Shown here: positions 1,847 through 17,552 of the stretch, piece after piece
Position numbering within the stretch: the stretch's first letter is position 1
Layout of the letters: each line of letters opens with the position of its first letter
Assembly: GCA_048941015.1 (NCBI GenBank)
Contig: JBHLNZ010000033.1
Location: 1 to 32,581, forward strand
Direction of reading: 5' to 3'
Origin: Promethearchaeota archaeon
GTDB taxonomy: Archaea > Asgardarchaeota > Lokiarchaeia > Sigyniarchaeales > SOKP01
DNA length: 32,581 bases
Position numbers and translations under genes: made by a program
The notes under the pieces: generated by a model
The model's database searches: none
What the model was told of the DNA's origin: nothing
What the model saw: the letters and a program-made list of their open reading frames with translations, nothing else

Positions 1847-3757
1847 TTGGATGAGTCAATAATTTATTTAATTCAGATATTTTGCATTTTTCTACTATTT
1901 TTTTCCATTATTTCCGGATTTGGAGGTATATTTAATTATTTCTTTCAAAAATGGAGTAAAATAAAATGGAACTTATCATTGCTTGAGAATATTCTAATAT
2001 CCTTTACAATTGGAATTATTTTTTACATCCAATTCGGATATCTTCTTACATTTTTCAGAATGTTTAATTTTTTTACAGCTTATCTACCGATTATCATTTT
2101 AACTTCAATGTTCTTAATTTTTTTAATTAAAAAAAAAATAATTCAGAAGATTTTTGTATCAATCAAACATAAAATAGAATCTAATAAAAAGGATTATTTG
2201 ATTAATATTTTAATTCTTTTTGGAATATTTATTTTTCAATTTATATCTTTCTTTCCTTTTGTAAATGAAACATCCGCTTTGTTAGCGGCAGATCCTTACT
2301 ATTGGACTGAAAATGTACTTTATCTTAATAATTATGGATTAATTAACACTGAGATAATGGGACCAAAATATCCATGGGGATTTGTCATTTATTGTTCAGG
2401 TAATTTATTAGGATTTCAAGATTTTGGAATTTCATATTATTTTATGAAATTTTCATTTTTTCCTTTTATCATGATATATTCTCTAATAATGTTTTCAATT
2501 TCTCAAAGATTATTTAAAAGCAAATTTGCGACTTTTTTCTGCCTATTATTAATTATTTCACAAAGTTATTTCATATATCGCGTAATTCAATTTATTTCAT
2601 CAAGCCTTGCAATACTATTAATTTTTTTATCATTTGTTGTACTTTTAACAGATATTCCAAATTACTTTCTTGGTATAATCTTATCAACTATATTTTTAAC
2701 CAATCCAGTATATTCATTTTTTTTTATACTCGCATTGGGGATTTTCTATCTAATAAAAATGATTATTTCTTATAAGACATATAAAATCATTTTAAAAGAA
2801 ATTATTCAGGTTATGATTTTATCAATAATCTGTTTAATTGTTTATGTTTATAGTGTAATTGTAATATATAATCAGGATCTTTTTACCATTATTAAATCTT
2901 TTATCGAGGGTTTCAACACAGGACTATCTATTACTCTTTCCTCTTTTATAGGAAGTTTTCAGCCATATCAATTAATTATTATTAATATACTCTTAGAGGG
3001 CTTATATGTTATTTTTTTTTCAGTATTACCCGTTATAAGTATCATTTTTCTAATTAAAAATCGTAAAGTTACGGTTAATAATGATTTTAATTTGTTTTTG
3101 ATTATTTGTGTAATTTTAGTTGGTATTTTTGTTTTAATATTACCCCATTTTTTATACTCGCGTTTAATTTTAATTTTTTATAATAGAATTGCTGAAGCTT
3201 TTTTACCAAGTATCGTAATTTTAGCAGGATATTCATTGAGATGGTTAAGTTTACTGTTCAAGAAAATAAAAGAAAAGATAAACTTAACTTTTTTTAAAAA
3301 TAATAGGAAAACTCAGAGAAATAATTCGAAATTAAGGGATTCTAAACATTTCTACATTATAATGTGTATAGGGATATCATTATTGATGTTAAATCATTTT
3401 TATGCTCGTGAAAATGTGTATATAGATTATCGATGGGATGATTCTATTATTGATTGCATCTTTTATATTCAAAATAATATTGAAAAAGAGTCAAACATCG
3501 CAATCAATGAAAATGACGAAACTTTTTCGCCTAATAATTTGCTTTTTGATTATGAATTGTATTTAATTCCCACAAATATTAGTTTAACTTTCTCTGAATT
3601 CATAAATTTTACAGAAGGAAATTCAATCGAATATTTAGTCATAAATTTATCCTTTTATAACGAAAACTTTACCATAGAATTTCAAAATTCTACTTCATTT
3701 TACAAATTAACTAGCGGAAATCTTTCAACAGATTTTAATTTATATGAGGTTTCTTAA
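1847..3757 (+). CDS. Polytopic membrane protein, probable GT-C fold glycosyltransferase
   Basis: 636 aa with more than 12 hydrophobic segments. The loop motif ADPYYW followed by YPWG is typical of a GT-C first external loop. The C-terminal soluble domain carries several sequons. TTG start; no WWDYG motif. Confidence 0.6.
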   Translation: MDESIIYLIQIFCIFLLFFSIISGFGGIFNYFFQKWSKIKWNLSLLENILISFTIGIIFYIQFGYLLTFFRMFNFFTAYLPIIILTSMFLIFLIKKKIIQKIFVSIKHKIESNKKDYLINILILFGIFIFQFISFFPFVNETSALLAADPYYWTENVLYLNNYGLINTEIMGPKYPWGFVIYCSGNLLGFQDFGISYYFMKFSFFPFIMIYSLIMFSISQRLFKSKFATFFCLLLIISQSYFIYRVIQFISSSLAILLIFLSFVVLLTDIPNYFLGIILSTIFLTNPVYSFFFILALGIFYLIKMIISYKTYKIILKEIIQVMILSIICLIVYVYSVIVIYNQDLFTIIKSFIEGFNTGLSITLSSFIGSFQPYQLIIINILLEGLYVIFFSVLPVISIIFLIKNRKVTVNNDFNLFLIICVILVGIFVLILPHFLYSRLILIFYNRIAEAFLPSIVILAGYSLRWLSLLFKKIKEKINLTFFKNNRKTQRNNSKLRDSKHFYIIMCIGISLLMLNHFYARENVYIDYRWDDSIIDCIFYIQNNIEKESNIAINENDETFSPNNLLFDYELYLIPTNISLTFSEFINFTEGNSIEYLVINLSFYNENFTIEFQNSTSFYKLTSGNLSTDFNLYEVS

Positions 3758-3839
3758 AAATAGGATTAAACTGAAATTTAGATTAATTTTTAATTATTTC
3801 TGACTTTCTCTAATTTAAAAGACTATTCTAAAAAAAACA

Positions 3840-4943
3840 ATGTCAAAAATTATTTATTTTGTTGCTGGTGCAAGACCTAATTTCATGAAGATTGCTCCTT
3901 TAATTTCAGAGATGAAAAAAGTTAGCTTAAAATTTAAATTAATTCATACTGGTCAGCATTATGATTATAATATGTCAAAAGTCTTTTTTGACACGCTAGG
4001 AATTCCTGAACCCGATTTCCATTTGGAAGCTGGCTCTGGAAGTCATGCGGTTCAGACTGCTAAAATTATGATTGAATTTGAAAAATTATTAATGAAGGAA
4101 AAACCAATCTTAGTTGTAGTGGTTGGTGATGTTAATTCTACGATTGCATGTGCTTTAGTTGCCAAAAAATTGTTTATAGATGTAGCTCATGTTGAGGCAG
4201 GTTTAAGAAGTTTTGATACAAGTATGCCTGAAGAGCTTAATAGATTATTAACAGATCAAATTTCTGATCTTTTATTTATTACAGAGAAAAGCGCTGAAGT
4301 TAATTTAAAGAGAGAGGGAGTTGATCAAAATAAAGTATACTTTGTAGGGAATGTAATGATAGACACATTAATAAGTAATATAGAAAAATCAAAAAAATTA
4401 GACTTTTATAAGAAATTCAATATTAAAATCAAATCGTATGCTTTGGTAACAATTCATAGACCATCGAATGTTGACAATAAGGAAGATTTACTTAAGATTG
4501 TAGAAATTTTAACATATATTAGCCATAAAATTAAAGTTATCTTCCCGATTCATCCCAGAACCAAAAAAAGTCTAATTAAACATGATCTTTTAAATAAATT
4601 GGATAAGGAAAATGTTATTTTAATTGATCCTGTAGGTTATTTAGATTTTTTAAATTTAATGTATAATGCAAAATTTATTCTAACCGATTCTGGTGGTATT
4701 CAAGAAGAAGCATCATATTTGAAAATCCCAATTTTAACCATGCGTAAAAATACAGAAAGGCCAATAACCATCGAAAAAGGTACAAACACAATAGTTGGGA
4801 ATAACTTAGAAAAAATTAAAAAAAATATAGATGATATTTTTTCTAATAGTTATAAAATAGGACAAGAGATTGAAAAATGGGATGGATTTGCAGCTAAGAG
4901 AATTATAGAAATCATTAAGAAAGTATATTTTAATGAAAACTGA
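3840..4943 (+). CDS. wecB: UDP-N-acetylglucosamine 2-epimerase (non-hydrolysing)
   Basis: Motifs GARPNFMK, HTGQHYD, VGDVNST, HVEAGLRSFD..MPEELNR, TDSGGIQEEA and TERP. Confidence 0.93.
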   Translation: MSKIIYFVAGARPNFMKIAPLISEMKKVSLKFKLIHTGQHYDYNMSKVFFDTLGIPEPDFHLEAGSGSHAVQTAKIMIEFEKLLMKEKPILVVVVGDVNSTIACALVAKKLFIDVAHVEAGLRSFDTSMPEELNRLLTDQISDLLFITEKSAEVNLKREGVDQNKVYFVGNVMIDTLISNIEKSKKLDFYKKFNIKIKSYALVTIHRPSNVDNKEDLLKIVEILTYISHKIKVIFPIHPRTKKSLIKHDLLNKLDKENVILIDPVGYLDFLNLMYNAKFILTDSGGIQEEASYLKIPILTMRKNTERPITIEKGTNTIVGNNLEKIKKNIDDIFSNSYKIGQEIEKWDGFAAKRIIEIIKKVYFNEN

Positions 4944-4993
4944 ATTGATTGGACTCAATTATAAATTTATCATAGTCATTATAGGTAATCAAT

Positions 4994-6217
4994 ATGAAAT
5001 TACAACTCGAAAAATATTCCTTTGTTAGAAAAAGTAAATTTTATCGCTTTTTCAGAGATATAATATTTCCTTTTGGTTTGAAAATCATTTCAAAAGTATT
5101 TAGCGATAAAATTGACGAGAAACTAATAATTATGGGAGGATATGGGGGAAATATTTATCTTGATAACACTAAGTATCTTTTTGAGTATCTTAATCAAATT
5201 TCAGATTATAAAGTTGTGTGGGTTGCAAAATCAAGGAAATTAGTAAAAGAACTTAAGCGAAAAGGGTATAATGCGATTCATATGTTAAATTTTATAACAA
5301 TTAAATGGCTAAGAAAAGCAAAATTTATTTTTTTTACCCATGGTATTTATGATGTTCTACCAATTGAATTTTCACCAAAAACAACCATTGTCCTGACATG
5401 GCATGGGACTCCGATAAAGAAAATAATTTTTGATGAAGATCTTGAATTTTTAACCTATACAAAATGGGGAAAGTATTTTAGATTAAAATTGAGATATAAC
5501 GATTATCTTAATTATATTCTAACTCCAACTAGAGATGAAAATGAGCATAGAATTTTAAGCTCAGCATTTAAAGTGCCAATTGACAAAATTCTCGCTTTAG
5601 GTTATCCGAGAAATGATATTTTATTTAATGAAGACAAAAATTTTATTAATGATTTAAAACAAAAATATCAAATTCCAGAGGATATTGAACGTGTAATATT
5701 ATATTGCCCTACTTTTAGGGATGATCATTCTTTAATGTTCTCAATTTCAATGAAAGATTTAAATGAATTAGAAAAATTGCTACGAGAAAAAAAATTACTT
5801 TTTCTATTAAAAGGGCATTATTTCATCCAAAATGTGAACTTTGATGAATATAAAAATATTAAAATAGTCCCTAAAGAGTCGGATATTCAAGAACTATACA
5901 TAATAACTGATATTCTTATCACAGATTATTCTTCAACAATGTTAGATTTTTCTTTATTGAATAGACCAATTTTACTATTTCCTTATGATTTTGATGAATA
6001 TAAAAAAGTTAGAGGGATGTATTATAATTTAGAAGATATTGCACCTGGACCATTAATCTTTACATTCCAAGAGCTTATCAATAATATTAGAGATATCGAG
6101 GATATTAATAAAAAATATGAGCAGAAACGCAATCTAATTAAAGAACGTTTCAATAAATATCTAGATGGTAAAACTAGTGAAAGAATTTTAGATTTTTTTA
6201 ATATAAGAAAAAGATAG
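4994..6217 (+). CDS. CDP-glycerol glycerophosphotransferase family protein (TagB/TagF-like); candidate phosphonyl transferase
   Basis: Motifs TWHGTPIKK, GYPRND, LYCPTFRD, ITDYSS.MLDF, FPYD..EY...RG.Y and DGKTSERI. It lies directly upstream of pepM. Confidence 0.9.
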   Translation: MKLQLEKYSFVRKSKFYRFFRDIIFPFGLKIISKVFSDKIDEKLIIMGGYGGNIYLDNTKYLFEYLNQISDYKVVWVAKSRKLVKELKRKGYNAIHMLNFITIKWLRKAKFIFFTHGIYDVLPIEFSPKTTIVLTWHGTPIKKIIFDEDLEFLTYTKWGKYFRLKLRYNDYLNYILTPTRDENEHRILSSAFKVPIDKILALGYPRNDILFNEDKNFINDLKQKYQIPEDIERVILYCPTFRDDHSLMFSISMKDLNELEKLLREKKLLFLLKGHYFIQNVNFDEYKNIKIVPKESDIQELYIITDILITDYSSTMLDFSLLNRPILLFPYDFDEYKKVRGMYYNLEDIAPGPLIFTFQELINNIRDIEDINKKYEQKRNLIKERFNKYLDGKTSERILDFFNIRKR

Positions 6218-6292
6218 TAGTTCTCAAGATTTAACTTTTCAAACCATCAATTAATCCCATTCAATATTTCCAACCAAAATTTTAAATAAAAG

Positions 6293-6302
6293 TTTTATAA
6301 AA
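6293..6302 (+). promoter_or_regulatory. Candidate archaeal TATA box for the phosphonate operon
   Basis: TTTTATAAAA preceded by purine-rich AATAAAAG, about 27-36 nt upstream of the pepM ATG. The AT-rich background makes this weak. Confidence 0.3.
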
Positions 6303-6328
6303 TAGAAATTTCCATTTTAATAGAAAAG

Positions 6329-8023
6329 ATGAGTTTAAAAAATAGAATTTCTCCCGAAGAAAGAAGAAAGTTATTAAAACGTTTACTTGAGCAAAAAAAA
6401 TTTATTAGAGCAATTGAAGCCCATAATGGTTTAAGTGCAATCATCGCAAATAATATTCATATAAAAGAAGGAAATGAAATTTACGAATTTGATGCTATTT
6501 GGGAGAGTAGCTTGACGGATAGTGCCGCAAAGGGATATCCCGATGCGGATATAATAGGTCCTGAATCAAGATATAACACAATTAGAGAGATTATCCATAG
6601 TTCAACAAAACCATTAATTGTTGATGGGGATACTGGTGGAGATGCTACCAGTTTTGAATATTTTGTAAGAGCCTTAGAAGATATGGGAGTCTCAATGGTA
6701 ATAATTGAAGATAAGACTTTTCCTAAAAGGAATAGTTTAGATCCTAAGTCTAAGCAAACTCAGGAGGATCCAAATACATTCACCGTAAAAATAGAAAGGG
6801 GTAAAAGTGTTCAATTATCTACTGAGTTTATGATCGCCGCCAGAATTGAAAGTTTTATCTCCGGAGCAGGTTTAGAAGATGCAATCTTTAGAGCTAAAAA
6901 GTATTTAAATGCGGGAGCTGATGCTATTATGATTCATTCTAAAAAAGATAATGCTGAAGATATCTTTAATTTTGCGCAAGAATATCATAAACTTTTAGAT
7001 GAATTAGAAGTGAAAAAACCTTTAATATGTGTTCCGACAACATATAATACCGTTTATGAAAATCAACTAAGAGAAAAGGGCTTCAATATTGTTATTTATG
7101 CAAATCATTTATTACGCGCAGCACATAAAGTAATGCGAGAAACAGCTTTAAATATTTTGAAAAGTAAAAGAGCATTCGAAGCAGAATCCTTATGTACTCC
7201 TATAAATACGATTTTTGAAGACGTGGGTTTTATTGAGGTAAGAGAAAAAGATTTAAAATATAAGAGAGGAAAAATTCGTACTATTATCCCTGCTGCGGGT
7301 AAAGATATCAATTTTGATATACCAAAAGCTTTAATAAAAATTAAAGGGAAAGAAATTTTATTAAGGCAGAAAGACAACTTGAAAAATTGTGGTATTGAAG
7401 ATATTACAGTTATTAAAGGATACAAGAAAGAACTAATCAATCTTGAAGGATTTAAATATATTATTAATAATGATTATGAAGATACTCATATATTACATTC
7501 TTTATTTAAAGCTGAAGAAGACATGGTCAATGGATTTATATATTTAAACTCTGATATCTTATTTGACCAACAAGTCATTGAAAATCTTTTAAATGTTAAA
7601 CATGACATTGTTTTAGTAGTTGATAATTCATATACATACCATAAACATGATTTAGATAAAAAACTTGATTTAGTTTTAGCAAAAAATAAACCTAGTGCAG
7701 AACATAGAATGCTGCATTTAAAGGAAAATGAAGCAATACGAATTGGAAAGACTATCGATAAAAATATGGCAGATTATGAATATGTTGGAATTGCTTACTT
7801 TTCTGAATATGGAGCGAATATTATACGGAAAATTTATCATGAATCTAAGATGAGCCATATGGGAAGGTTTCACGAAGCAGAATCATTTGAAAAAGCTTCA
7901 TTTACTGATTTTATTCAAGAAGTGATTGATCGAGGATTTAGAGTTAGTTTGTTGGAAGTTCATAAAGGATGGTATGAAATACATAATAAAAAAGATGTTG
8001 AAATAGTTGAAAAGCTATTTTAA
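6329..8023 (+). CDS. pepM: Phosphoenolpyruvate mutase fused to a C-terminal nucleotidyltransferase (PntC/LicC-like) domain
   Basis: Diagnostic EDKxxxxxNS motif (EDKTFPKRNS) plus EAHNGLSA, VDGDTGG, ARIES, GADAIMIHS, VPTTY and VIYANHLLRA. The C-terminal NTP-transferase fold starts at about aa 316 (IIPAAG...PKALI, GYKKE, SDILF, GWYEIH). Confidence 0.96.
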   Translation: MSLKNRISPEERRKLLKRLLEQKKFIRAIEAHNGLSAIIANNIHIKEGNEIYEFDAIWESSLTDSAAKGYPDADIIGPESRYNTIREIIHSSTKPLIVDGDTGGDATSFEYFVRALEDMGVSMVIIEDKTFPKRNSLDPKSKQTQEDPNTFTVKIERGKSVQLSTEFMIAARIESFISGAGLEDAIFRAKKYLNAGADAIMIHSKKDNAEDIFNFAQEYHKLLDELEVKKPLICVPTTYNTVYENQLREKGFNIVIYANHLLRAAHKVMRETALNILKSKRAFEAESLCTPINTIFEDVGFIEVREKDLKYKRGKIRTIIPAAGKDINFDIPKALIKIKGKEILLRQKDNLKNCGIEDITVIKGYKKELINLEGFKYIINNDYEDTHILHSLFKAEEDMVNGFIYLNSDILFDQQVIENLLNVKHDIVLVVDNSYTYHKHDLDKKLDLVLAKNKPSAEHRMLHLKENEAIRIGKTIDKNMADYEYVGIAYFSEYGANIIRKIYHESKMSHMGRFHEAESFEKASFTDFIQEVIDRGFRVSLLEVHKGWYEIHNKKDVEIVEKLF

Positions 8024-8059
8024 GAATAACTTAAATGTAATTTAATTGTTTAAATTTTA

Positions 8060-9208
8060 TTGAATCTAAGAATGTTAGAATATATTGGTTATAATTCCAT
8101 TCAAAAGTTAAAGAAAATTCTTAAAAATAATAATTTCAAAAAGATTTTTTTAGTTACAGGAAGGAAATCATTTGAGCAAGATGAAATCAAGCAAATTATT
8201 CTCAAATTAATAGATGGATATGACTATTATCATTTTAATGATTTTACACCAAATCCAAATATTTTAGATGTAAAAAAAGGATTAGACATTATACATCAGG
8301 AAAATTTTGATGTTATTGTAGCTATAGGAGGGGGTTCTGTAATTGATATGGCTAAATCAATTTCATTATTATCAAAAAATAATGAACCCCCAGAAAAAAT
8401 AATTAAGAAGGAAGTAAAAATAACTAATAGAGGAATTCCGTTAATAAGGATTCCTACAACAGCTGGTTCTGGCAGCGAAGCAACTCACTTTGCCGTAGTT
8501 TATATTGGGAAAACAAAGTACTCCTTGGCTGATAAGGATTTTATGATGCCAGATTTTGTCATAGTTGATCCTCAATTTACGTTAACATTACCAAAGAAGA
8601 TAACAGCAGATACCGGTATGGATGCACTAAGTCAAGCAATAGAATCTTTCTGGAATACCTATTCTACAAAAGAATCTAAAAATTATTCAAAAAAAGCAAT
8701 TGAGTTGATTATATCTAATTTAGTTAAATCAGTGAACCAACCAACAAGAAAATCAAGATATAATATGGCAATAGCAGCTAATTATGCTGGTAAAGCAATC
8801 AATATTACTAAAACAACCGCTTGTCATGCAATATCCTATCCAATAACCTCATATTTCAACATTCCTCATGGGCATGCTGTTGCTTTAACTTTACCTTCCA
8901 TGATTGTTTTTAATTCAGAGGTTAATCAAAACGATGTTTTAGACCCAAGAGGAGTGAAGTTTGTAAAATCTGAGATGAATAAACTAATTTCTATTATTGG
9001 AGTTTCTGAATTTCAAGAAGCTGAAGAAAAGATTATCAATATTATGAAACAGATCAATTTAGAAACTAAGTTAAGTGAATTGGGGATTAATTCATCAGAA
9101 GATATTGATATTATAATTAGAAATGGATTTACCCCAAATCGAGTAAAAAATAATCCCCGATTATTGACAGAACTTCAACTCAGAAAGATTCTGGAGGGAA
9201 TTAAATGA
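8060..9208 (+). CDS. phpC: Phosphonoacetaldehyde reductase (group III iron-containing alcohol dehydrogenase, HEP-forming)
   Basis: Motifs GGGSVIDMAK, IPTTAGSGSEATHFAV, DALSQAIES, TTACHAISYPIT...IPHGHAVA and R.KNNPR. It sits between pepM and ppd. The start is TTG 8060 or ATG 8072. Confidence 0.85.
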   Translation: MNLRMLEYIGYNSIQKLKKILKNNNFKKIFLVTGRKSFEQDEIKQIILKLIDGYDYYHFNDFTPNPNILDVKKGLDIIHQENFDVIVAIGGGSVIDMAKSISLLSKNNEPPEKIIKKEVKITNRGIPLIRIPTTAGSGSEATHFAVVYIGKTKYSLADKDFMMPDFVIVDPQFTLTLPKKITADTGMDALSQAIESFWNTYSTKESKNYSKKAIELIISNLVKSVNQPTRKSRYNMAIAANYAGKAINITKTTACHAISYPITSYFNIPHGHAVALTLPSMIVFNSEVNQNDVLDPRGVKFVKSEMNKLISIIGVSEFQEAEEKIINIMKQINLETKLSELGINSSEDIDIIIRNGFTPNRVKNNPRLLTELQLRKILEGIK

Positions 9209-9921
9209 AAGTTATTATCTTAAATGCGGGAATTGGAAAAAGATTTGGAGATCTAACTAAAAATAAACCAAAATGTCTCATTAAGATAACTAAAAAAGAA
9301 ACCATATTAGATCTTCAATTAAAAACTTTAATTGAGTGTAATTTTATAGATATAGTTATGTTAACTGGTCCTTTTGAAGATATGATAAAGAATCATGTGA
9401 ATGAGAATTACCCGATTTTGAATGTACAATATATACAAAATCCAATTTATAATCAAACAAATTATATATATTCTATTTATCTACTTAAAGATATTATTAA
9501 TGATGCCATAATATTATTACATGGAGATTTAATTTTTACCAAAAAAGTATTGGAACAAATAATTAATTCTGAAGAAAAGAACTGTGTAATTGTAAATAAA
9601 GAAATTTCAATTCCCAGAAAAGATTTTAAAGCATTAATAGTTAATGAAAAAATAATAAGAATAGGAGTCGACATTTTTGAACCTAATAGTGCATTTTTAG
9701 CGCCTTTATACAAATTATCAAAACAATTTTTTAGAACTTGGCTTAATAAAATTGAAAAATTTATAGAGCAGAATAAAGTAAATTGCTATGCTGAAGATGC
9801 TTTAAATGAGATATTATACAAATTAGATTTAAAACCGATTTATATTAACGATATTAATTGCATGGAAATTGATGATTTTAATGATTTAGAGAGAATTAAA
9901 AAATATTTTATTGAAAAGTGA
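9205..9921 (+). CDS. Phosphocholine/phosphonate cytidylyltransferase (LicC/PntC-like)
   Basis: Motifs NAGIGKRFGDLTKNKPKCL, NPIYNQTNYIYS, LHGDLIF, YAEDALN and EIDDFNDL. It has an ATGA overlap with the upstream reductase. Confidence 0.85.
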   Translation: MKVIILNAGIGKRFGDLTKNKPKCLIKITKKETILDLQLKTLIECNFIDIVMLTGPFEDMIKNHVNENYPILNVQYIQNPIYNQTNYIYSIYLLKDIINDAIILLHGDLIFTKKVLEQIINSEEKNCVIVNKEISIPRKDFKALIVNEKIIRIGVDIFEPNSAFLAPLYKLSKQFFRTWLNKIEKFIEQNKVNCYAEDALNEILYKLDLKPIYINDINCMEIDDFNDLERIKKYFIEK

Positions 9922-9948
9922 AAAATTGAATAAATTGAGCTAACTCTT

Positions 9949-11085
9949 ATGATTTTATGTCAAGAATTTTTTGAAATTTTAAAGGAAAAAGGATTTTCTT
10001 TTTTTACTGGAATTCCTGATTCCACTTTTAAGGAATGGATCAAATTTATTATAGATAACGATGGTGGAGTTTTAAAACATATCATAGCATGTAATGAATG
10101 TGAGGCAATTGCTTTAGCTGCTGGCTACCATTTAGCAACTAAAAAAATAGGTGTTGTTTATATGCAAAATTCTGGTCTTGGTAAGACAGTAAACCCCCTT
10201 ACTTCTCTATGTGATCCTGATGTTTATTCTATACCTATTCTTTTAATGATAGGATGGCGTGGAGAGCCTGAGACAAAAGATGCTCCACAACATAAGAAAA
10301 TGGGAAGAATAACCTTATCATTATTAGATACACTTCAAATTCCCTATAGTATAATAGAACAAAATATTGAAAAGATTAGGTTAGAACTTAATAAAGTATT
10401 ACAGTATTTTAAAAATAAAAAAGGGCCTTATGCTTTTATCATACGACCTAACTTATTCCAAAAATATGATGCAAAAGTGAAAAAAGATAATGATTACATT
10501 ATAACAAGAGAAGAAGCAATTAATTTGATAATGGATAATTTAGATGGTAATGAAATTATTGTATCTACTACGGGATATACTTCTAGAGAATTATTTGAAT
10601 ATCGAGAATCAAGAAAAAAGAACCACCATCTAAGTTTTTATAATATTGGATCTATGGGTTGCGCTAGCTCAATTGGTCTTAGTATAGCACTGGAAAAACC
10701 GAATACAAAAGTTATCGTTTTTGATGGGGATGCAGCGGCTATTATGCAAATGGGTGCATTTACTACGATTGGTAAATATAAACCTTCTAATTTTACACAT
10801 ATTATATTTGATAATAGTGCTCATGAATCTACTGGGGGTCAGCCCACAAATTCAAATTCTTCTGACTTATTACAAATTGCACTTTCTTGTAATTATAAAT
10901 TTGGATTATATATTAAAAACATAAGTGAATTGAATAATTCGATTAAATTTATTAAAAAATCAGAAGGTCCTATTATTTTAATCATTAAAATAAAGCAGGG
11001 TTCAAGATCTAATTTGAAGAGACCTGAAAAGGATCCAAAAGATTATAAAGAACTTTTTATGAGTCATCTTACAAGCTTAAAATAA
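9949..11085 (+). CDS. aepY: Phosphonopyruvate decarboxylase (ThDP-dependent)
   Basis: Motifs GIPDS, YMQNSGLG..VNPLTSL, IGWRGEP...DAPQH, STTGYTSRELF, GSMGCASSIGL and the ThDP motif FDGDAA...FDNSAHESTGGQP. Confidence 0.95.
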   Translation: MILCQEFFEILKEKGFSFFTGIPDSTFKEWIKFIIDNDGGVLKHIIACNECEAIALAAGYHLATKKIGVVYMQNSGLGKTVNPLTSLCDPDVYSIPILLMIGWRGEPETKDAPQHKKMGRITLSLLDTLQIPYSIIEQNIEKIRLELNKVLQYFKNKKGPYAFIIRPNLFQKYDAKVKKDNDYIITREEAINLIMDNLDGNEIIVSTTGYTSRELFEYRESRKKNHHLSFYNIGSMGCASSIGLSIALEKPNTKVIVFDGDAAAIMQMGAFTTIGKYKPSNFTHIIFDNSAHESTGGQPTNSNSSDLLQIALSCNYKFGLYIKNISELNNSIKFIKKSEGPIILIIKIKQGSRSNLKRPEKDPKDYKELFMSHLTSLK

Positions 11086-11118
11086 TTATTACTTAACTAA
11101 GTATATGGTTTATTAAAT

Positions 11119-12375
11119 ATGGTTAAAGAGATATTATTTTTATCTTATCATTTCGCACCTTATAGTAAAATCTTAAGTATTAGAGCTGCTGAATTTGCAA
11201 AAAGATTAATTCAATTAGGTTATAAAATTTTTGTTGTTAGGGCTAAAGTTAATAAAAATGCTTTAAAAGATGGGAAACTCTTAGAGAAGGTTGATTCTCC
11301 CTTAATAGAAAATCATCCTGTTTTTAATTTAAGTTTCTCTAAAGAAGGAATACAATCTAATTTAAAGAAGGTCACACCAAATCTGGATATTATTAATTTT
11401 CTTCTATTTTTTCATTGGATCCCTCTTGCTTTTTTGACATGTCGCAAGCTGATAAAAAGAAATAACATTAGGTTAATTTATGCCTCAGCACCCCCTTTTT
11501 TTACCTTATTACTGGGATTTTTATTAAAAAAGATCTATAAAATTCCATTGATTATTGAATATAGAGACCCTTGGTCTTATAATCCATATTTAGAAGAGAC
11601 TGCAAAGACTTTTATTGATAAAACTTATTTAAAAATAGAAAAAAAAATTCTTAAATCAGCTGATTCTATTATTTGTATTAGTGATGGAATGAAACAATTT
11701 TTAATTGAGAAGTTCCCAGATCAATTAAAAAATAAAGATCTTAAAGTGATTCCTCATGGTGTTAATTTTGAAGAGATAAGTCAAATAGCTTTAAAGAAAA
11801 AACTAGAAAATGAGATAATTATTACATTTACAGGCAATTTATATGGATTAAGAAATCTCAAACCTTTAATAAAGATAATTTCTAGCTCTAAAAAATTTGG
11901 AAAATTAGATGGGATTTCACTAAAAATCAAAATTTTTGGCCGATATGATTCCGGTTATCTAGAAAATCTAATCAAAAAATATGATGTTATTGAATATTTT
12001 AATTTACAAGGATTTGTACCACGCGATATGTGTTTTGAAGAAGTATATAATTCTTCATTAGCTCTACATGTAGGAGAAGATCTGAATTATCCTACCTTAA
12101 GTTTTAAAGTTCTCGAATATTTGAGTATGAGAAAAAAAATTATGTATTTAGGAAAAGAAGATTCATACACAGCGAAATTTTTGGAAGAAAATGACATGGG
12201 ATTTACAATCCCTATTAATGATTTTAATGCGGGATTAAATAAGTTTGGACTTTTAATCGAAAAAATTAAGTCAAAACAAATTAGTTTAGAAATTTTACCC
12301 AATAAATTAAAAAGTCTCACTTGGGATAAGAATTCAAACGAATTAGCAGACATTTTTAAAAAATTTTTTAATTAA
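11119..12375 (+). CDS. Glycosyltransferase family 4 (GT-B)
   Basis: Motifs SYHFAP, SAPPF, EYRDPW, IPHGVN, FTGNLYG.R and K..EYL. Confidence 0.85.
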   Translation: MVKEILFLSYHFAPYSKILSIRAAEFAKRLIQLGYKIFVVRAKVNKNALKDGKLLEKVDSPLIENHPVFNLSFSKEGIQSNLKKVTPNLDIINFLLFFHWIPLAFLTCRKLIKRNNIRLIYASAPPFFTLLLGFLLKKIYKIPLIIEYRDPWSYNPYLEETAKTFIDKTYLKIEKKILKSADSIICISDGMKQFLIEKFPDQLKNKDLKVIPHGVNFEEISQIALKKKLENEIIITFTGNLYGLRNLKPLIKIISSSKKFGKLDGISLKIKIFGRYDSGYLENLIKKYDVIEYFNLQGFVPRDMCFEEVYNSSLALHVGEDLNYPTLSFKVLEYLSMRKKIMYLGKEDSYTAKFLEENDMGFTIPINDFNAGLNKFGLLIEKIKSKQISLEILPNKLKSLTWDKNSNELADIFKKFFN

Positions 12376-12413
12376 AAAGAGATATTCAATTATATTGTTA
12401 TCGAAAATATTCT

Positions 12414-14453
12414 ATGATGAATATACATAATTTAATGGTTAAACTTAAAAGGATATCATATTTCAAATTAATTAATTATTATAAGCCATATATTATAAAA
12501 AAAATATATTCGCTTTTTCTAAATAAACGAAAGCTATATTTAATCAATTCATATGTATCAGATAATTTAGTAAAACGTTATTTTGGGAAAGATTTGAATT
12601 TTGAAAAGCTTAGAAGCGCTTTTTTTGATACAGATATATTTAAATATTCAAATACAGATGAAATTACGATTTTATTAGAATATCTTAAAAAAAACAGTCA
12701 AGACGAGTTAGATACATATATTGAGCAAGCAAATAGACTATGTTATAATAAAGTTCCAATTTTTGAAAAAGAATATCATTTTGAAAAAAATTTCGATTGG
12801 TTTTATGGCTTTACAGATGACTTTTATTGGAAGTTCGAAAGATCCGATAAAATCGAGATTAGACCTAAATATAAGGATGAATTTATAGACATAAAATTGG
12901 TTTGGGAATTAAACAGACACCAATTCCTGCAAATTTTAGGTATAGCATATCTAATTACTAAACAAGAAAAATATGCGATAAGATTTAAAGAGATTATTTT
13001 AGATTGGATAAAAAAAAATCCTCCCTTGTATGGTGTAAATTGGATATCTGGGTTAGAAATCTCATTAAGATTGATTTCTTGGATATTAAGTTTATATTTC
13101 TTCAAGGGATCGATTAATATTAATAACAAAAGGTTTTTCGCTAAGATTTTTAAATCTATGTTTCAACACGCTTACTTCCTCAGAAATTTTTATACTAAAC
13201 GTTCATTTAATCATACTATTGGAGATATGTGTGGCGCATATTTATTCTCTAAGATTTTTAATGGAAATTCAAAAATAATAAAATGGCAAAAAAAATTCTC
13301 GCAGGAAATAATTAAAAATATAAAGCTTCAAATCAGGCCTGATGGAGTTAATATAGAACAATCGCTTAATTATCATAAATTTGTTTTAGAATTTTTTTCT
13401 CTTTTTCTTATAATAAGTCCTGAATTAATACATGAGCCAGAAAAAGCACTTATTGCAAAAATGTTTGAATATTTGTTTTATTCCATTAAACCAAATCATA
13501 AATTCCCTCTAATTGGAGATTCTGATGAGGGAAGAGCCTTGTTTCTCAGTAATAAGGGACATAAAGGCTTTTTAGAATTATTAAGTTTAGGATCAGTTTT
13601 ATTTCGTAACAAAGGAATAAAATATCTTACAAATCACCCTGCTATAATTACAGTTTTCTTGTTAGGAATTAAAGGTATTGAGGACTTTAATAAATTAGAA
13701 TCAATTGAATCAAATGTAAATTTTAAATTTTTCGAAAATTCTGGATATTTTATAATTAGAAATAATTGGAAGAAAAATGGAAATTATCTTTTTGTAGATT
13801 TTGGAAGATTTGGTCCACAGAATGCTCCACATTCTCATAGTGACATTACTAATATTATCTTTTCTTATAAGGGTAAGGACATCTTAATTGATTCTGGGAC
13901 TTATTCTTATAATAGATCTTGGGAGGAGAGATCTCATTTTAGAAGTAGTGTTGCTCATAATATTATATCAATTAATCACAACAATCAAGCAAAAATAGAA
14001 GGTTGGTTTAGTTGGGCTAATAAACCAAAGTTAAAGAGGAAAGTAAATAAAATTGAGTCTAATTTTGAGTTATGCTGTATACATAATGGTTATAAAGGTT
14101 TTTTAGTGAAAAGAGTAATTAATACTAATAAAAGTGTAGATGAAATAATAATTACGGATAAGATATTTTATAAAAACGAAGCAAAAGATGAAGAACCCCA
14201 CGATGTTGATTTGTTTTTTCATTTTAACAATGATATTGATCTTAAAATGAATCAAAATACTGTACAGATTGATAATAATTTATTATTAACTATTTCATCT
14301 GATAATGATTTTTCTATGAAAATTAATAAAACATATTTTTCTCCAATATATAGTCAGAAATGTGAAATTAAAGTTCTAAATATTCATTTAAATCATAATT
14401 TTAAATTTAAAAACAGTCTTCAAATAATATCAAAAATCAAGTCTATAGAATAA
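12414..14453 (+). CDS. Heparinase II/III-like (alginate lyase superfamily) protein
   Basis: Motifs KLVWELNRHQ, WIKKNPP..GVNW.SGLE.SLR, NH, DG..IEQSLNYH, IGDSD.G, HSHSD, DSGTYSY and RSS.AHN. No signal peptide is evident. Confidence 0.88.
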   Translation: MMNIHNLMVKLKRISYFKLINYYKPYIIKKIYSLFLNKRKLYLINSYVSDNLVKRYFGKDLNFEKLRSAFFDTDIFKYSNTDEITILLEYLKKNSQDELDTYIEQANRLCYNKVPIFEKEYHFEKNFDWFYGFTDDFYWKFERSDKIEIRPKYKDEFIDIKLVWELNRHQFLQILGIAYLITKQEKYAIRFKEIILDWIKKNPPLYGVNWISGLEISLRLISWILSLYFFKGSININNKRFFAKIFKSMFQHAYFLRNFYTKRSFNHTIGDMCGAYLFSKIFNGNSKIIKWQKKFSQEIIKNIKLQIRPDGVNIEQSLNYHKFVLEFFSLFLIISPELIHEPEKALIAKMFEYLFYSIKPNHKFPLIGDSDEGRALFLSNKGHKGFLELLSLGSVLFRNKGIKYLTNHPAIITVFLLGIKGIEDFNKLESIESNVNFKFFENSGYFIIRNNWKKNGNYLFVDFGRFGPQNAPHSHSDITNIIFSYKGKDILIDSGTYSYNRSWEERSHFRSSVAHNIISINHNNQAKIEGWFSWANKPKLKRKVNKIESNFELCCIHNGYKGFLVKRVINTNKSVDEIIITDKIFYKNEAKDEEPHDVDLFFHFNNDIDLKMNQNTVQIDNNLLLTISSDNDFSMKINKTYFSPIYSQKCEIKVLNIHLNHNFKFKNSLQIISKIKSIE

Positions 14454-14562
14454 TAGATAATTTTAATCAATAAATTTTACTAAAATATATTATTTAATTG
14501 ATATTCTATAAACTATAACTTTTCTCAATTGTTTTCCCAATTATTTTTAAGGTTATGAAAAA

Positions 14563-16743
14563 ATGAAAAAATTGTATATTAATCCAAGAGGTAAAGTTAT
14601 TTTACAAAAAGCAAGAGAACCTCAATTAGAAACAAAAGGTGTAATAGTTGACACTAAATATGCGTTAATTAGCTCTGGAACTGAACTATCTATAATTAAA
14701 TGGAAAAAAACAATGAATTTACCAATATATAAGCAGATTATTAAATCAAAATATCTTAGAAAACGAATAATGTCAGAATTTAAAAAGAATACATTAAGAG
14801 GGTTGTTCAAATTATTTAAAACTTATAAAGAAAGGGGTAGTTTTAAGAATTATGTTAATCCTTCTCATAATCTGACACCAATAGGTTATAGCTGTTCAGG
14901 TGTTGTTAAAGATTCAAACATAAAAGAATTTAAAGTTGGTGAAAAAGTAGCTTGTGGTGGATCTCATCATGCTGAAAGGTTATTTTCATCTAAAAATTTA
15001 ACAGCGAAAATACCTGAAAATGTGAGTTTCGAAGAAGCAGCATTTGCAACTTTGGGAGCGATTGCTTTACATGGTAGTCACCGTGCAGAAATTAACCAAG
15101 GTGAGAATATTGGGATAATTGGAACTGGATTAATTGGATTGATTGTTGTCCAACTAGCTAAAATTTCTGGAGCAAAAGTATTCGCTCTCGATTTAATTAA
15201 TAAGAGATTAAACTTAGCAAAAAAATTGGGAGCAGATATTATTATAAATCCTTATTATCATAACTCCAAACTAATTATTGATAAGTATACCGAAGCAAAA
15301 GGTTTAGATTCTATAATCATTTGCGCATCATCGAAGTCTAATAAACCATTGGAGGATGCTGTTGAATTAATACGTGATAAGGGGAAAATTGTTATGCTTG
15401 GTGCTTTTCCTATAAGTATTGACAGAAATAAAATATATTATAAAGAAACAGATTTATTAATCTCGCGTTCTTATGGACCAGGGCGGTATGATCCATATTA
15501 TGAGCATGAAGGATTCGATTATCCGGAAAGATATGTGCCTTGGACAGAAAAGAGAAATATGGAAATGTTTTTAAACCTAATCTCTGAGGGCAAACTAAAC
15601 GTAAAATCTTTAATTTCTGATATTGTTCCTGCTGAGTTAGCAAATAGCGCATATGAAAAATTAGACTCGGATCAAATAAATAATATAGCAATCTTATTGA
15701 GTTTTAATCAAGAAGAGACTTTACAAATTGATAATTATCATATGAAAGCGAGTGAAGCAGTCCAAAAGAAGTGTATAGTAGGATTAATAGGTTGTGGTTC
15801 TTTTGCACAAGGAACTCATCTTCCAATACTTTTAAGCAATAAGTTTTGTAAAATAAAAGCAATATCGACCAATTCTCAGAAAACTGCGGATTTCTGCCGA
15901 CGCACCTATAATCCAGAGTATACCACTACAAATTATAAAAAAATATTGAAAGATCCCGAAATTGATTTAGTATTTATTTATACGAGACATGATTTACACG
16001 CAAAAATTACAATTGATGCTATTCAAGCAGGGAAAAATGTATTTGTTGAAAAACCTATGGGAATAACTTTAGAAGAATGTCAAAAAGTATACGATATAGT
16101 AAAAAACTCTCAAAAAAATTATCAAATAGGTTTTAATCGAAGATATAGTCCTTTTATTAAAATATGTAAAGATTTGTTGCAAAATCGTCAAAATCCGATA
16201 ATTATTAATTATCGAATATCTAGTCAATTTATTCCAGGAAGTTATTGGGTATTTGATCCTGAAATAGGAGGAGGTCCAATTATTGGAGAAATGTGCCATT
16301 TTGTTGATTTGGTATTATACTTAATGAATTCAAATCCAACTGAGGTGATTGCGTATGGAGGTTATATGAGCCATAAAAACACAGAAGTATATGATAGCTG
16401 TGTAGCCTTAATAGAATTTGAGAATGGAGCTATAGCTAATCTTATATATACCGATTTAAATGGCCCAAATATGCCAAAAGAACGTATTGAAATCTATTCT
16501 GGTGATTCAGCAATAATAATTGATGATTTTAAATTTATGAACACTAGTGGTTTTGATGTTGGAAATTACAAGCTTAATACACAGGATAAAGGTCATAAAA
16601 ATGAGATAGCCAATATAATTTCTCTAAATTTAGGTCTGAAAGATCCGCTGGTAGGAGTAGATGATGCGATGAAAGCAATGGATCTTATATTTAAAATAAT
16701 TGAATCTATTAAAACAAGAAAAGCTATTAAAATAAATAAGTAA
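14563..16743 (+). CDS. Bi-domain oxidoreductase (MDR-type dehydrogenase plus Gfo/Idh/MocA domain)
   Basis: N-domain motifs ISSGTEL, GYSCSG, AFATLGAIALHG, IGTGLIG and SRSYGPGRYDP.YE. C-domain motifs IGCGSFA, VFVEKP, GFNRRYSP and GGG.IIGE.CHFVD. Confidence 0.9.
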   Translation: MKKLYINPRGKVILQKAREPQLETKGVIVDTKYALISSGTELSIIKWKKTMNLPIYKQIIKSKYLRKRIMSEFKKNTLRGLFKLFKTYKERGSFKNYVNPSHNLTPIGYSCSGVVKDSNIKEFKVGEKVACGGSHHAERLFSSKNLTAKIPENVSFEEAAFATLGAIALHGSHRAEINQGENIGIIGTGLIGLIVVQLAKISGAKVFALDLINKRLNLAKKLGADIIINPYYHNSKLIIDKYTEAKGLDSIIICASSKSNKPLEDAVELIRDKGKIVMLGAFPISIDRNKIYYKETDLLISRSYGPGRYDPYYEHEGFDYPERYVPWTEKRNMEMFLNLISEGKLNVKSLISDIVPAELANSAYEKLDSDQINNIAILLSFNQEETLQIDNYHMKASEAVQKKCIVGLIGCGSFAQGTHLPILLSNKFCKIKAISTNSQKTADFCRRTYNPEYTTTNYKKILKDPEIDLVFIYTRHDLHAKITIDAIQAGKNVFVEKPMGITLEECQKVYDIVKNSQKNYQIGFNRRYSPFIKICKDLLQNRQNPIIINYRISSQFIPGSYWVFDPEIGGGPIIGEMCHFVDLVLYLMNSNPTEVIAYGGYMSHKNTEVYDSCVALIEFENGAIANLIYTDLNGPNMPKERIEIYSGDSAIIIDDFKFMNTSGFDVGNYKLNTQDKGHKNEIANIISLNLGLKDPLVGVDDAMKAMDLIFKIIESIKTRKAIKINK

Positions 16744-16772
16744 TAAAAAATGTAAAGAAATATTAAACGCCG

Positions 16773-17552
16773 ATGCTAGAATCTATTGAAATTAAGAATA
16801 AATACGCATTATTTTCTACATTAAGAGATGATGTCATTTTCCAAAGAGATATCATAGATAATTTTATATTTTGTGGTGGGCAGATCAAATCTATTGACCA
16901 AGACGTATATAATTTTAAATTAAATGAGTATGTAGGATATATACTATGTTCTCAGGATCTTATTACAACATTAACTACTAATCAGATTGTAAAAATTCCA
17001 AATAAAGATGATCTAAAAACATTCGCTATTTTACCGTATGCATCATATGGAATGAAAATCCTAAGAATGTTAAATCTTGATTTTAGCAAGAAAATTTTGA
17101 TTATAGGGAAGAATATTTTCACAATTCTCTTAAAAAACCTAATCAAACTATCAGGAGCGAGTGCCTACTTATTCAGTTCAGAAGCGCTCCCTAATGAAAT
17201 TAAAGATATCACATTTGATAATATTATATACGATACATTAACTCCTCAAATTAACAGCTTGATTGCGAATATTAAATATCAAAATAAAATGGAATTGAAT
17301 AAAATTAACCTCTTTGATAAAGGATTGGATGACAGAAATTATCTTATGGGCATAAAATATCCATATGCCTATGTAAGATGGGACTTTAAAAGAAATCTTG
17401 AGTATTTTATTAATTTAGTTGAGACAAAAAAGGTAAACTTGGATTTTTTTAATATAACCGCTATACAGGTTAATAACTTGGCGGAATTACGGTTAAATAT
17501 GAATGATGTAGAAAAAGATTCATTGATATTATATAAAATAATTACTCGATAA
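16773..17552 (+). CDS. Degenerate paralogue of the MDR domain of the upstream bi-domain oxidoreductase
   Basis: Shared blocks: KYALFS/KYALIS, KIPN...FA/KIPE...FA, LIKLSGA/LAKISGA, and YPYAYVRWDFKRNLEYFINLVETKKVN versus YPERYVPWTEKRNMEMFLNLISEGKLN. The Rossmann glycines are lost. Confidence 0.75.
   Translation: MLESIEIKNKYALFSTLRDDVIFQRDIIDNFIFCGGQIKSIDQDVYNFKLNEYVGYILCSQDLITTLTTNQIVKIPNKDDLKTFAILPYASYGMKILRMLNLDFSKKILIIGKNIFTILLKNLIKLSGASAYLFSSEALPNEIKDITFDNIIYDTLTPQINSLIANIKYQNKMELNKINLFDKGLDDRNYLMGIKYPYAYVRWDFKRNLEYFINLVETKKVNLDFFNITAIQVNNLAELRLNMNDVEKDSLILYKIITR

Follow-up and report, generated by a model that had tools for sequence, protein, structure and literature searches.

The stretch of DNA considered here (hereafter the window) comprises 32,581 nucleotides of contig JBHLNZ010000033.1 (NCBI GenBank assembly GCA_048941015.1) from a Promethearchaeota archaeon, an Asgard archaeon whose genome spans 3.59 Mb in 144 contigs and is 95% complete. 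The window is AT-rich (approximately 27% GC) and carries a polysaccharide-biosynthesis locus in which a gene for a TagF-family phosphotransferase of 407 amino acids (aa) adjoins a cassette of phosphonate genes. All genes from position 1847 to 17552 lie on the forward strand, in the order 636-aa protein, WecB, the TagF-family gene, PepM fused to a nucleotidyltransferase (NTase) domain, an iron-dependent alcohol dehydrogenase (Fe-ADH), a 238-aa NTase and Ppd, followed by a GT4 glycosyltransferase, a heparinase II/III-like protein, a fusion of ADH_zinc_N and GFO/IDH/MocA domains and a 259-aa open reading frame (ORF). Downstream of this ORF are more glycosyltransferases, methyltransferases, a flippase and sugar-nucleotide enzymes. 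On the strength of sequence comparison, the TagF-like enzyme is presented here as a candidate, with chances that we judge to be evenly balanced, for a transferase that uses hydroxyethylphosphonate activated with cytidine monophosphate (CMP-HEP) and moves a single HEP-phosphonyl group to a sugar of the glycan made by the locus.

The gene is real and intact, and encodes a TagF-family phosphotransferase with a single GT-B domain, of the size of TagB and TarF. Its product matches PF04464 (Glyphos_transf) with an E value of 3.7e-79 and a score of 266.8 bits (cut-off 22.1), over positions 10-364 of the 367 in the profile, and aligns with TagF of Staphylococcus epidermidis (PDB 3L7I) at E 1e-46, the 407-aa protein covering TagF residues 348-714. 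The catalytic base is H137 in the motif TWHGTP, corresponding to H444 of TagF and H300 of TarL, and the second histidine, which contacts the alpha-phosphate, is H275 in LKGHYFI, corresponding to H584 of TagF (LRMH584YLI) and H433 of TarL; both are invariant in the family alignment. An AlphaFold model of the protein (predicted local distance difference test 83.4, predicted template-modelling (TM) score 0.84) finds as its top PDB matches exclusively TagF structures (3L7I-M), with TM scores of 0.75-0.77 over approximately 410 columns, and then TarL and Cps3D/capsule polymerases. In the model, the first 37 residues form one long helix, and the extra N-terminal domain that lies upstream of the GT-B domain in TagF-type polymerases was not found in the 407-aa protein. 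The equivalog cut-offs of NCBIfam are not reached for TarF (200.4 against 550), TarL (91.2 against 1000) or TarB (73.9 against 500), and the closest homologues, 406-412 aa in length and 44-89% identical, come from Asgard archaea, namely Promethearchaeota, Lokiarchaeia, and Thor-, Hermod- and Hodarchaeota. Only 111 bp on the same strand separate the gene from that of the PepM fusion, so that an intact TagF-family gene directly upstream of pepM, as described in an earlier sequence-only reading of this DNA, is indeed present.

The genes that follow would together supply an activated phosphonate. Phosphoenolpyruvate would be converted to phosphonopyruvate by the PepM domain, phosphonopyruvate to phosphonoacetaldehyde by Ppd, and phosphonoacetaldehyde to HEP by the Fe-ADH, after which the 238-aa NTase, which resembles LicC and PntC, would convert HEP to CMP-HEP. 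The fixed place of the Fe-ADH in approximately 30 cassettes, together with the absence of an aminoethylphosphonate (AEP) transaminase from the window, points to a role as phosphonoacetaldehyde reductase. In the 238-aa NTase the NAGIGKR loop is intact, and the best matches in the PDB are LicC (1JYK; 4e-9) and the PntC-aminotransferase protein of Treponema denticola (6PD1; 3e-8). It is present in all Asgard cassettes, always with the NAGIGKR loop. In bacteria, PepM/Fe-ADH/Ppd clusters regularly include the same type of NTase, at 38-44% identity, and most of these clusters have no TagF-like gene, which places the NTase in the phosphonate pathway rather than in an exclusive partnership with the TagF-like enzyme. 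In the NTase domain that is fused to PepM the loop reads IIPAAG[KTSE][DE]P.F, without the arginine of GxGxR, in all 23 of the Asgard fusions that could be read (24 in total). Loops were read in the window (7244-8023 and 9205-9921) and in loci L116, L119, L143, L144 and L173-L192, and bacterial HEP clusters likewise have two or even three cytidylyltransferase-type domains. Since the 238-aa type of NTase belongs to the pathway, and since Fom1 makes CMP-HEP (cited in PMC6697681), CMP-activated HEP is the expected product of the cassette, and such a product needs a transferase. From these comparisons we infer which NTase activates HEP and also the identity of HEP itself.

Enzymes that could supply another donor, or serve as another transferase, are not evident in this genome. 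Neither TagD nor TarI is encoded in the window, and in the whole genome the best match to TIGR01518 (TagD) reaches 35.7 bits against a cut-off of 165.4 and the best IspD/TarI match 25.5 bits against 27. The sequence-only reading, which had noted that TagD and TarIJ are missing from the window, thus holds for the genome as a whole in the case of TagD and TarI, with the caveat that the 726-aa ADH_zinc_N + GFO/IDH/MocA protein is of the same superfamily as TarJ; its gene keeps company with the heparinase-like gene rather than with one for an NTase. LicD (PF04991) has no match in the whole genome, the module of Sulfatase-fold, MFS and cassette-type CDP-OH_P_transf proteins described below is absent from it, and PF04464 is present in a single copy, leaving the TagF-like protein as the only evident CMP-releasing transferase for the CMP-HEP pathway in this genome. 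The glycan locus also encodes a 444-aa protein of the type I phosphodiesterase/AlkP fold (PF01663; 21721-23055), which was considered as a rival transferase and rejected because none of the other cassette loci examined has an orthologue of it, and which is thus placed outside the module. Elsewhere in the same genome (G000:C38:6100-7826), a gene for a phosphatidyltransferase acting on alcohols linked to cytidine diphosphate (CDP) lies beside one for a 152-aa protein of the cytidylyltransferase family, which is not TagD and not clearly CoaD; the pair may represent a CDP-alcohol head-group pathway.

The association of TagF-like and phosphonate genes was followed through 400 Asgard genomes, which were scanned for TagF-like proteins, PepM and TagD; approximately 80 loci were then fetched and trees were built. 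In a tree of 67 Asgard TagF-like proteins, the window's protein falls in a clade with support of 97-99 in the Shimodaira-Hasegawa-like approximate likelihood ratio test (SH-aLRT). All six members of this clade that come from genomes directly adjoin a PepM fusion, as do three further members from metagenomes (P0002, P0014, P0018), and PepM adjacency is constant despite variation among these loci in the position and orientation of GT4 and WecB. Of the eleven members of the clade with a known context, all but one directly adjoin PepM. Two more, separate clades of Asgard TagF-like proteins (L143/L144 and L141/L142) also lie in PepM/Ppd clusters, of which an Fe-ADH is part in one clade and not in the other. 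Within the GTDB family to which the window belongs, 20 genomes have both TagF-like and PepM genes, 16 the TagF-like gene only, 11 PepM only and 88 neither, an association that is strong but drawn from kin genomes that are not independent of one another.

Approximately 30 genomes contain the four-gene cassette itself, which comes with either of two partners. In eight Asgard cassette loci the partner is a TagF-like gene, and the module of Sulfatase-fold, MFS and CDP-OH_P_transf proteins is absent; in 13 it is a Sulfatase-fold protein, and a TagF-like gene is absent. These 13 loci usually also have an MFS transporter and a third NTase, with a CDP-alcohol phosphatidyltransferase as well in 6 of them. 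No cassette locus among those examined has both the TagF-like gene and the Sulfatase-fold module. The second arrangement (L173-L176, L179-L181, L185-L188, L191 and L192, in genomes G182, G183, G179, G209 and others) places the MFS gene directly upstream of PepM and includes a Sulfatase-fold protein of 501 aa, and suggests a lipid-linked route of the phosphonolipid or EptA/LtaS-like kind. TagD exceeds its cut-off in 3 of the 400 Asgard genomes and TagF-like genes are found in 55, many of them adjoining genes of the NTP_transferase family; as a group, the Asgard TagF-like proteins probably use donors other than TagD-made CDP-glycerol. Several Asgard genomes also encode tandem two-domain TagF-like proteins of approximately 815-820 aa (for example G170:C10:327258-329618, G174:C2:266986-269340 and G172:C13:3226-5577), one of which is encoded approximately 6 kb from a PepM cluster that also has two single-domain copies.

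Similar neighbourhoods are met in Bacteria. Ppd was found in 30 of 381 Lachnospirales genomes scanned, and in 4 of the 31 Ppd loci a TagF-like gene is located within 9 kb. In one of these orders of genes (L240, Lachnospirales genome G567; 2993-15317, minus strand), TagF-like genes stand at both sides of a Ppd operon, which reads YidC (60KD_IMP)+TagF-like, a triple fusion of NTP_transf_3, CTP_transf_like and PepM, Fe-ADH, Ppd and a 601-aa TagF-like protein, which is followed by an acyltransferase, an Aminotran_5 protein and a permease. In another (L010, Lachnospiraceae metagenome-assembled genome SUG1358; 3259-12565), the order is Sulfatase, NTase, AEP transaminase, Ppd and a fusion of GT2 with a TagF-like domain, the PepM of this genome being on another contig. 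This AEP cluster adjoins fliD and genes for Maf-like glycosyltransferases, and suggests phosphonate decoration of a flagellin glycan, as has been chemically reported for Clostridioides difficile. The Lachnospirales loci show that the link between TagF-like and phosphonate genes recurs well outside the Asgard archaea, and their TagF-like genes, like those of the two other Asgard clades, have been recruited to phosphonate genes independently. The nearest non-Asgard relatives of the window's protein, taken at 76 bacterial and methanogen loci that include L010, have TagD within 10 kb at 33 loci and PepM at no locus.

The coordinates of the genes at the locus are collected in Table 1. The positions of the 636-aa and 259-aa ORFs are conserved in the orthologous loci L119, L193 and L194. 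WecB adjoins the TagF-like gene also in L119, L193 and L195; it should supply UDP-N-acetylmannosamine (UDP-ManNAc), a possible source of the acceptor sugar.

Table 1. Genes at and around the TagF-family gene of the window.
Feature	Position	Strand	Remarks
636-aa protein, no Pfam/NCBIfam family	1847..3757	+	Head of glycan locus; orthologues adjoin WecB in L119, L193
WecB, UDP-GlcNAc 2-epimerase	3840..4943	+	TIGR00236 347.5 bits vs cut-off 210
TagF-family phosphotransferase, 407 aa	4994..6217	+	ATG start; PF04464 266.8 bits
PepM fused to C-terminal NTase-like domain	6329..8023	+	TIGR02320 336.8 bits vs 319.55; NTP_transf_3 at residues 319-433
Fe-ADH, putative phosphonoacetaldehyde reductase (PhpC/FomC-like) making HEP	8060..9208	+	PF00465, PF25137
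238-aa LicC/PntC-like NTase, putative HEP cytidylyltransferase	9205..9921	+	NTP_transferase; intact GxGKR loop
Ppd, phosphonopyruvate decarboxylase	9949..11085	+	TIGR03297 440.5 bits vs cut-off 312.5
GT4 glycosyltransferase of host glycan locus	11119..12375	+	PF13439
726-aa ADH_zinc_N + GFO/IDH/MocA protein	14563..16743	+	Same superfamily as TarJ
259-aa ORF, no Pfam/NCBIfam match	16773..17552	+	Position kept in orthologous loci

Precedent for an unusual donor in this family is provided by FtaD (CD0244) of C. difficile, a protein similar to TagF that transfers phospho-N-methylthreonine from a donor linked to CDP onto N-acetylglucosamine (GlcNAc) in vitro (bioRxiv 10.64898/2026.02.12.704994), and the family can therefore use CDP-linked donors other than polyols for the decoration of single sugars. 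The C. difficile glycan that FtaD modifies has also been reported to carry 2-AEP, with no enzyme assigned to it (PMC8861647). In their treatment of phosphonate biosynthesis, Rice et al. (2019) describe the tailoring steps as enigmatic, naming no candidates other than LicD-like enzymes or glycosyltransferases (PMC6697681). TagF-type enzymes are mentioned neither there nor in Li et al. (2022) or Acker et al. (2022), and no link between phosphonates and TagF, PF04464 or glycerophosphotransferases was found in the literature searched.

If the TagF-like enzyme takes up the product of the cassette, the acceptor hydroxyl would be expected to attack, in line, the beta-phosphorus of the CMP-linked donor, with release of CMP, such that one HEP-phosphonyl group would become attached as a phosphonate monoester to a sugar of a lipid-linked surface glycan. 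Through the adjacent WecB, this acceptor sugar may be ManNAc. In this genome the donor is most likely CMP-HEP, although donor and acceptor are both what we infer from the genes present.

Several observations weigh against CMP-HEP as donor and need to be set beside the synteny. At the level of the cassette, the Fe-ADH scores 198.5 bits against TIGR03405, the equivalog for phosphonate alcohol dehydrogenases, and does not reach the cut-off of 423.7; furthermore, approximately 13 of 21 Asgard HEP cassettes with usable flanks have no TagF-like gene nearby. At the level of the TagF-like protein, and most tellingly, one relative (P0011), 70% identical and nested in the PepM-adjacent clade, is encoded on a 24-kb contig that has no cassette. 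Its locus is otherwise syntenic with that of the window (639-aa protein, WecB, TagF-like, GT4, heparinase-like, ADH-GFO and a 260-aa ORF), indicating that the four genes of the cassette were cleanly inserted or deleted between the TagF-like gene and GT4, and that the TagF-like gene can be kept without an adjacent cassette; in L193 and L197 (Logan SRR8556254) the spacer between the TagF-like gene and GT4 is 112 bp, compared with 4.9 kb in the window. No PepM lies within 9 kb in the sister clade (52-57% identity), one member of which (P0047, 54% identical) stands beside a 134-aa TagD that scores 190 bits against the equivalog cut-off of 165.4. Relatives of 44-55% identity occur in PepM-free genomes that are 92-100% complete (G249, G248, G238, G259, G266, G242, G155 and G276), as does one of approximately 41% identity in G174, and many of the relatives from PepM-free genomes sit beside other genes of the NTP_transferase family. 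The sequence-only reading had proposed to test whether the clade co-occurs with pepM plus phpC, and had named closest homologues with tagD or tarIJ and without pepM as evidence to the contrary. Such co-occurrence is upheld by the window's own clade, which nearly always adjoins PepM, and not by the cassette-less orthologue and the sisters without PepM; the contrary evidence has been found in part, in the form of the TagD-linked sister and the PepM-free relatives.

The residues of the donor pocket add to these points. According to the rule for polyol pockets derived from a study of TarL, P-L denotes glycerol and G-A-F ribitol (PMC10901376). The motif of the window, WHGTP-I, is of the glycerol type and identical to that of the TagD-linked sister (L127), while bacterial relatives carry WHGTP-L, and the alignment holds no fixed residue difference between the PepM-linked clade and its sister clades. 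A motif of the glycerol type would accommodate glycerol or a smaller group and does not single out HEP. Two candidate markers were rejected: C238 (in place of A), the sole column found as a signature of PepM-linked proteins, is common to the sisters, and the P-L/G-A-F rule does not serve as a marker of phosphonate use, in that PepM-linked proteins, Asgard and bacterial alike, vary (TP-I, NP-M, GD-I, AGAGY, TP-L and FG-L). The structure model bears out the fold and does not distinguish CMP-HEP from CDP-glycerol.

The most serious competing explanation, which we consider rather unlikely, is that the protein serves the glycan locus as a conventional transferase of polyol or alcohol phosphates, supplied for example with CDP-glycerol by an NTase encoded elsewhere, and that a mobile four-gene HEP cassette landed beside it, the HEP being attached by another enzyme or used otherwise. 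The clean insertion or deletion of the cassette, with the same locus lacking it in L193, the joint travel of the TagF-like gene with WecB, GT4 and the heparinase-like gene, the sister beside a true TagD, the relatives in PepM-free genomes and the glycerol-type pocket would all be in keeping with such a history. Less easily accommodated are the lack of TagD and TarI in the genome, the PepM adjacency, which persists through several rearrangements and is met again in bacteria and in unrelated clades, and the requirement of a CMP-activated phosphonate for a transferase, of which the cassette has none of its own, when LicD, a cassette-type CDP-OH_P_transf and a Sulfatase-fold protein are all absent as alternatives. 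The proposal of the sequence-only reading, that this enzyme is the CMP-HEP ligation step, is thus plausible and no more than that: synteny, recurrence and the lack of another transferase favour it, and the cassette-less orthologue, the TagD-linked sister and the glycerol motif speak against it.

It is also conceivable, at a low probability, that the product of the cassette is not destined for a glycan at all, becoming instead the head group of a phosphonolipid, or a phosphonate that is soluble or secreted, with the TagF-like gene as a functionally unrelated neighbour. The 13 other Asgard loci that pair the cassette with MFS and Sulfatase-fold proteins, 6 of them with a CDP-alcohol phosphatidyltransferase, show where this idea comes from; in the window, however, the cassette lies inside an operon of glycan genes that all run in one direction and include WecB, glycosyltransferases and a flippase, and the lipid-type module is missing from the genome. 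Least probable is a polymerase that builds poly(HEP) by adding each HEP-phosphonyl group to the free hydroxyl of the previous unit. Chains of this kind had been entertained in the sequence-only reading, HEP having such a hydroxyl, and the crystallised TagF fragment to which the protein aligns is the catalytic domain of a polymerase. They find no support here, as the protein consists of the GT-B domain alone, is as large as TagB/TarF and does without the extra N-terminal domain of the polymerases (PMC10901376), and no comparative signal for polymerisation was seen.

Relatives of the window's protein clearly use other CDP-linked donors, and the family is therefore best seen as taking whichever CMP-linked group its locus supplies. 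Extending the transfer of a single HEP-phosphonyl group from this locus to others, it can be suggested, tentatively and with somewhat more doubt than belief, that TagF-family enzymes are a general class of phosphonyl transferases for CMP-HEP and CMP-AEP, recruited repeatedly in Bacteria and Asgard archaea, with the gene in the window as the ligation step for HEP-decorated glycans. The synthesis of phosphonates and their activation with CMP are known, and the enzyme that attaches them to surface glycans is a gap that a TagF-type transferase would fill, if the suggestion is true. The donor range of the TagF family would then widen from phosphate esters to carbon-phosphorus compounds, and a coat of phosphonate-bearing glycans would be predicted for some members of the Asgard archaea, the prokaryotes most closely related to eukaryotes. 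Among the pools of marine dissolved organic phosphorus, phosphonoglycans are a major one (PMC8931226).

Parallels can be drawn between this locus and systems already characterized. The early steps of fosfomycin synthesis (Fom1, Fom2 and FomC) likewise combine Ppd with a PepM that carries an NTase domain and with an Fe-ADH that forms HEP, as its counterpart here is predicted to do, with the differences that the NTase domain of the window is fused C-terminally and has a degenerate loop, and that enzymes for antibiotic tailoring are lacking. Activation with CMP before further use is common to the making of CMP-HEP by Fom1 and of CMP-AEP by PntC (PMC6697681) and is proposed likewise here; unlike PntC and LicC systems with LicD-type transfer, the window's genome has no LicD, and the step to the acceptor is assigned, as a proposal, to a TagF-family enzyme. 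The TagB/TarF/TagF enzymes (PF04464; PDB 3L7I-3L7M) share the fold of the window's protein (TM 0.77) and approximately 28% identity over the whole catalytic domain, and their WHG histidine, second histidine, PTxR, TDYSS and glycerol-type P-[LI] pocket are kept in it. Its size fits the primase/TarF class, and WecB (ManNAc) is located next door, as in the linkage unit of teichoic acids, whereas the host is an archaeon, the genome lacks TagD and TarIJ, and a phosphonate cassette adjoins the gene instead. FtaD differs in that its donor is a phosphate ester and not a phosphonate, its host is bacterial and its acceptor is flagellin O-GlcNAc; as described, it is like the system proposed here in using a non-polyol, CDP-linked donor made by neighbouring genes and in placing a single substituted phosphate on one sugar after glycosylation.

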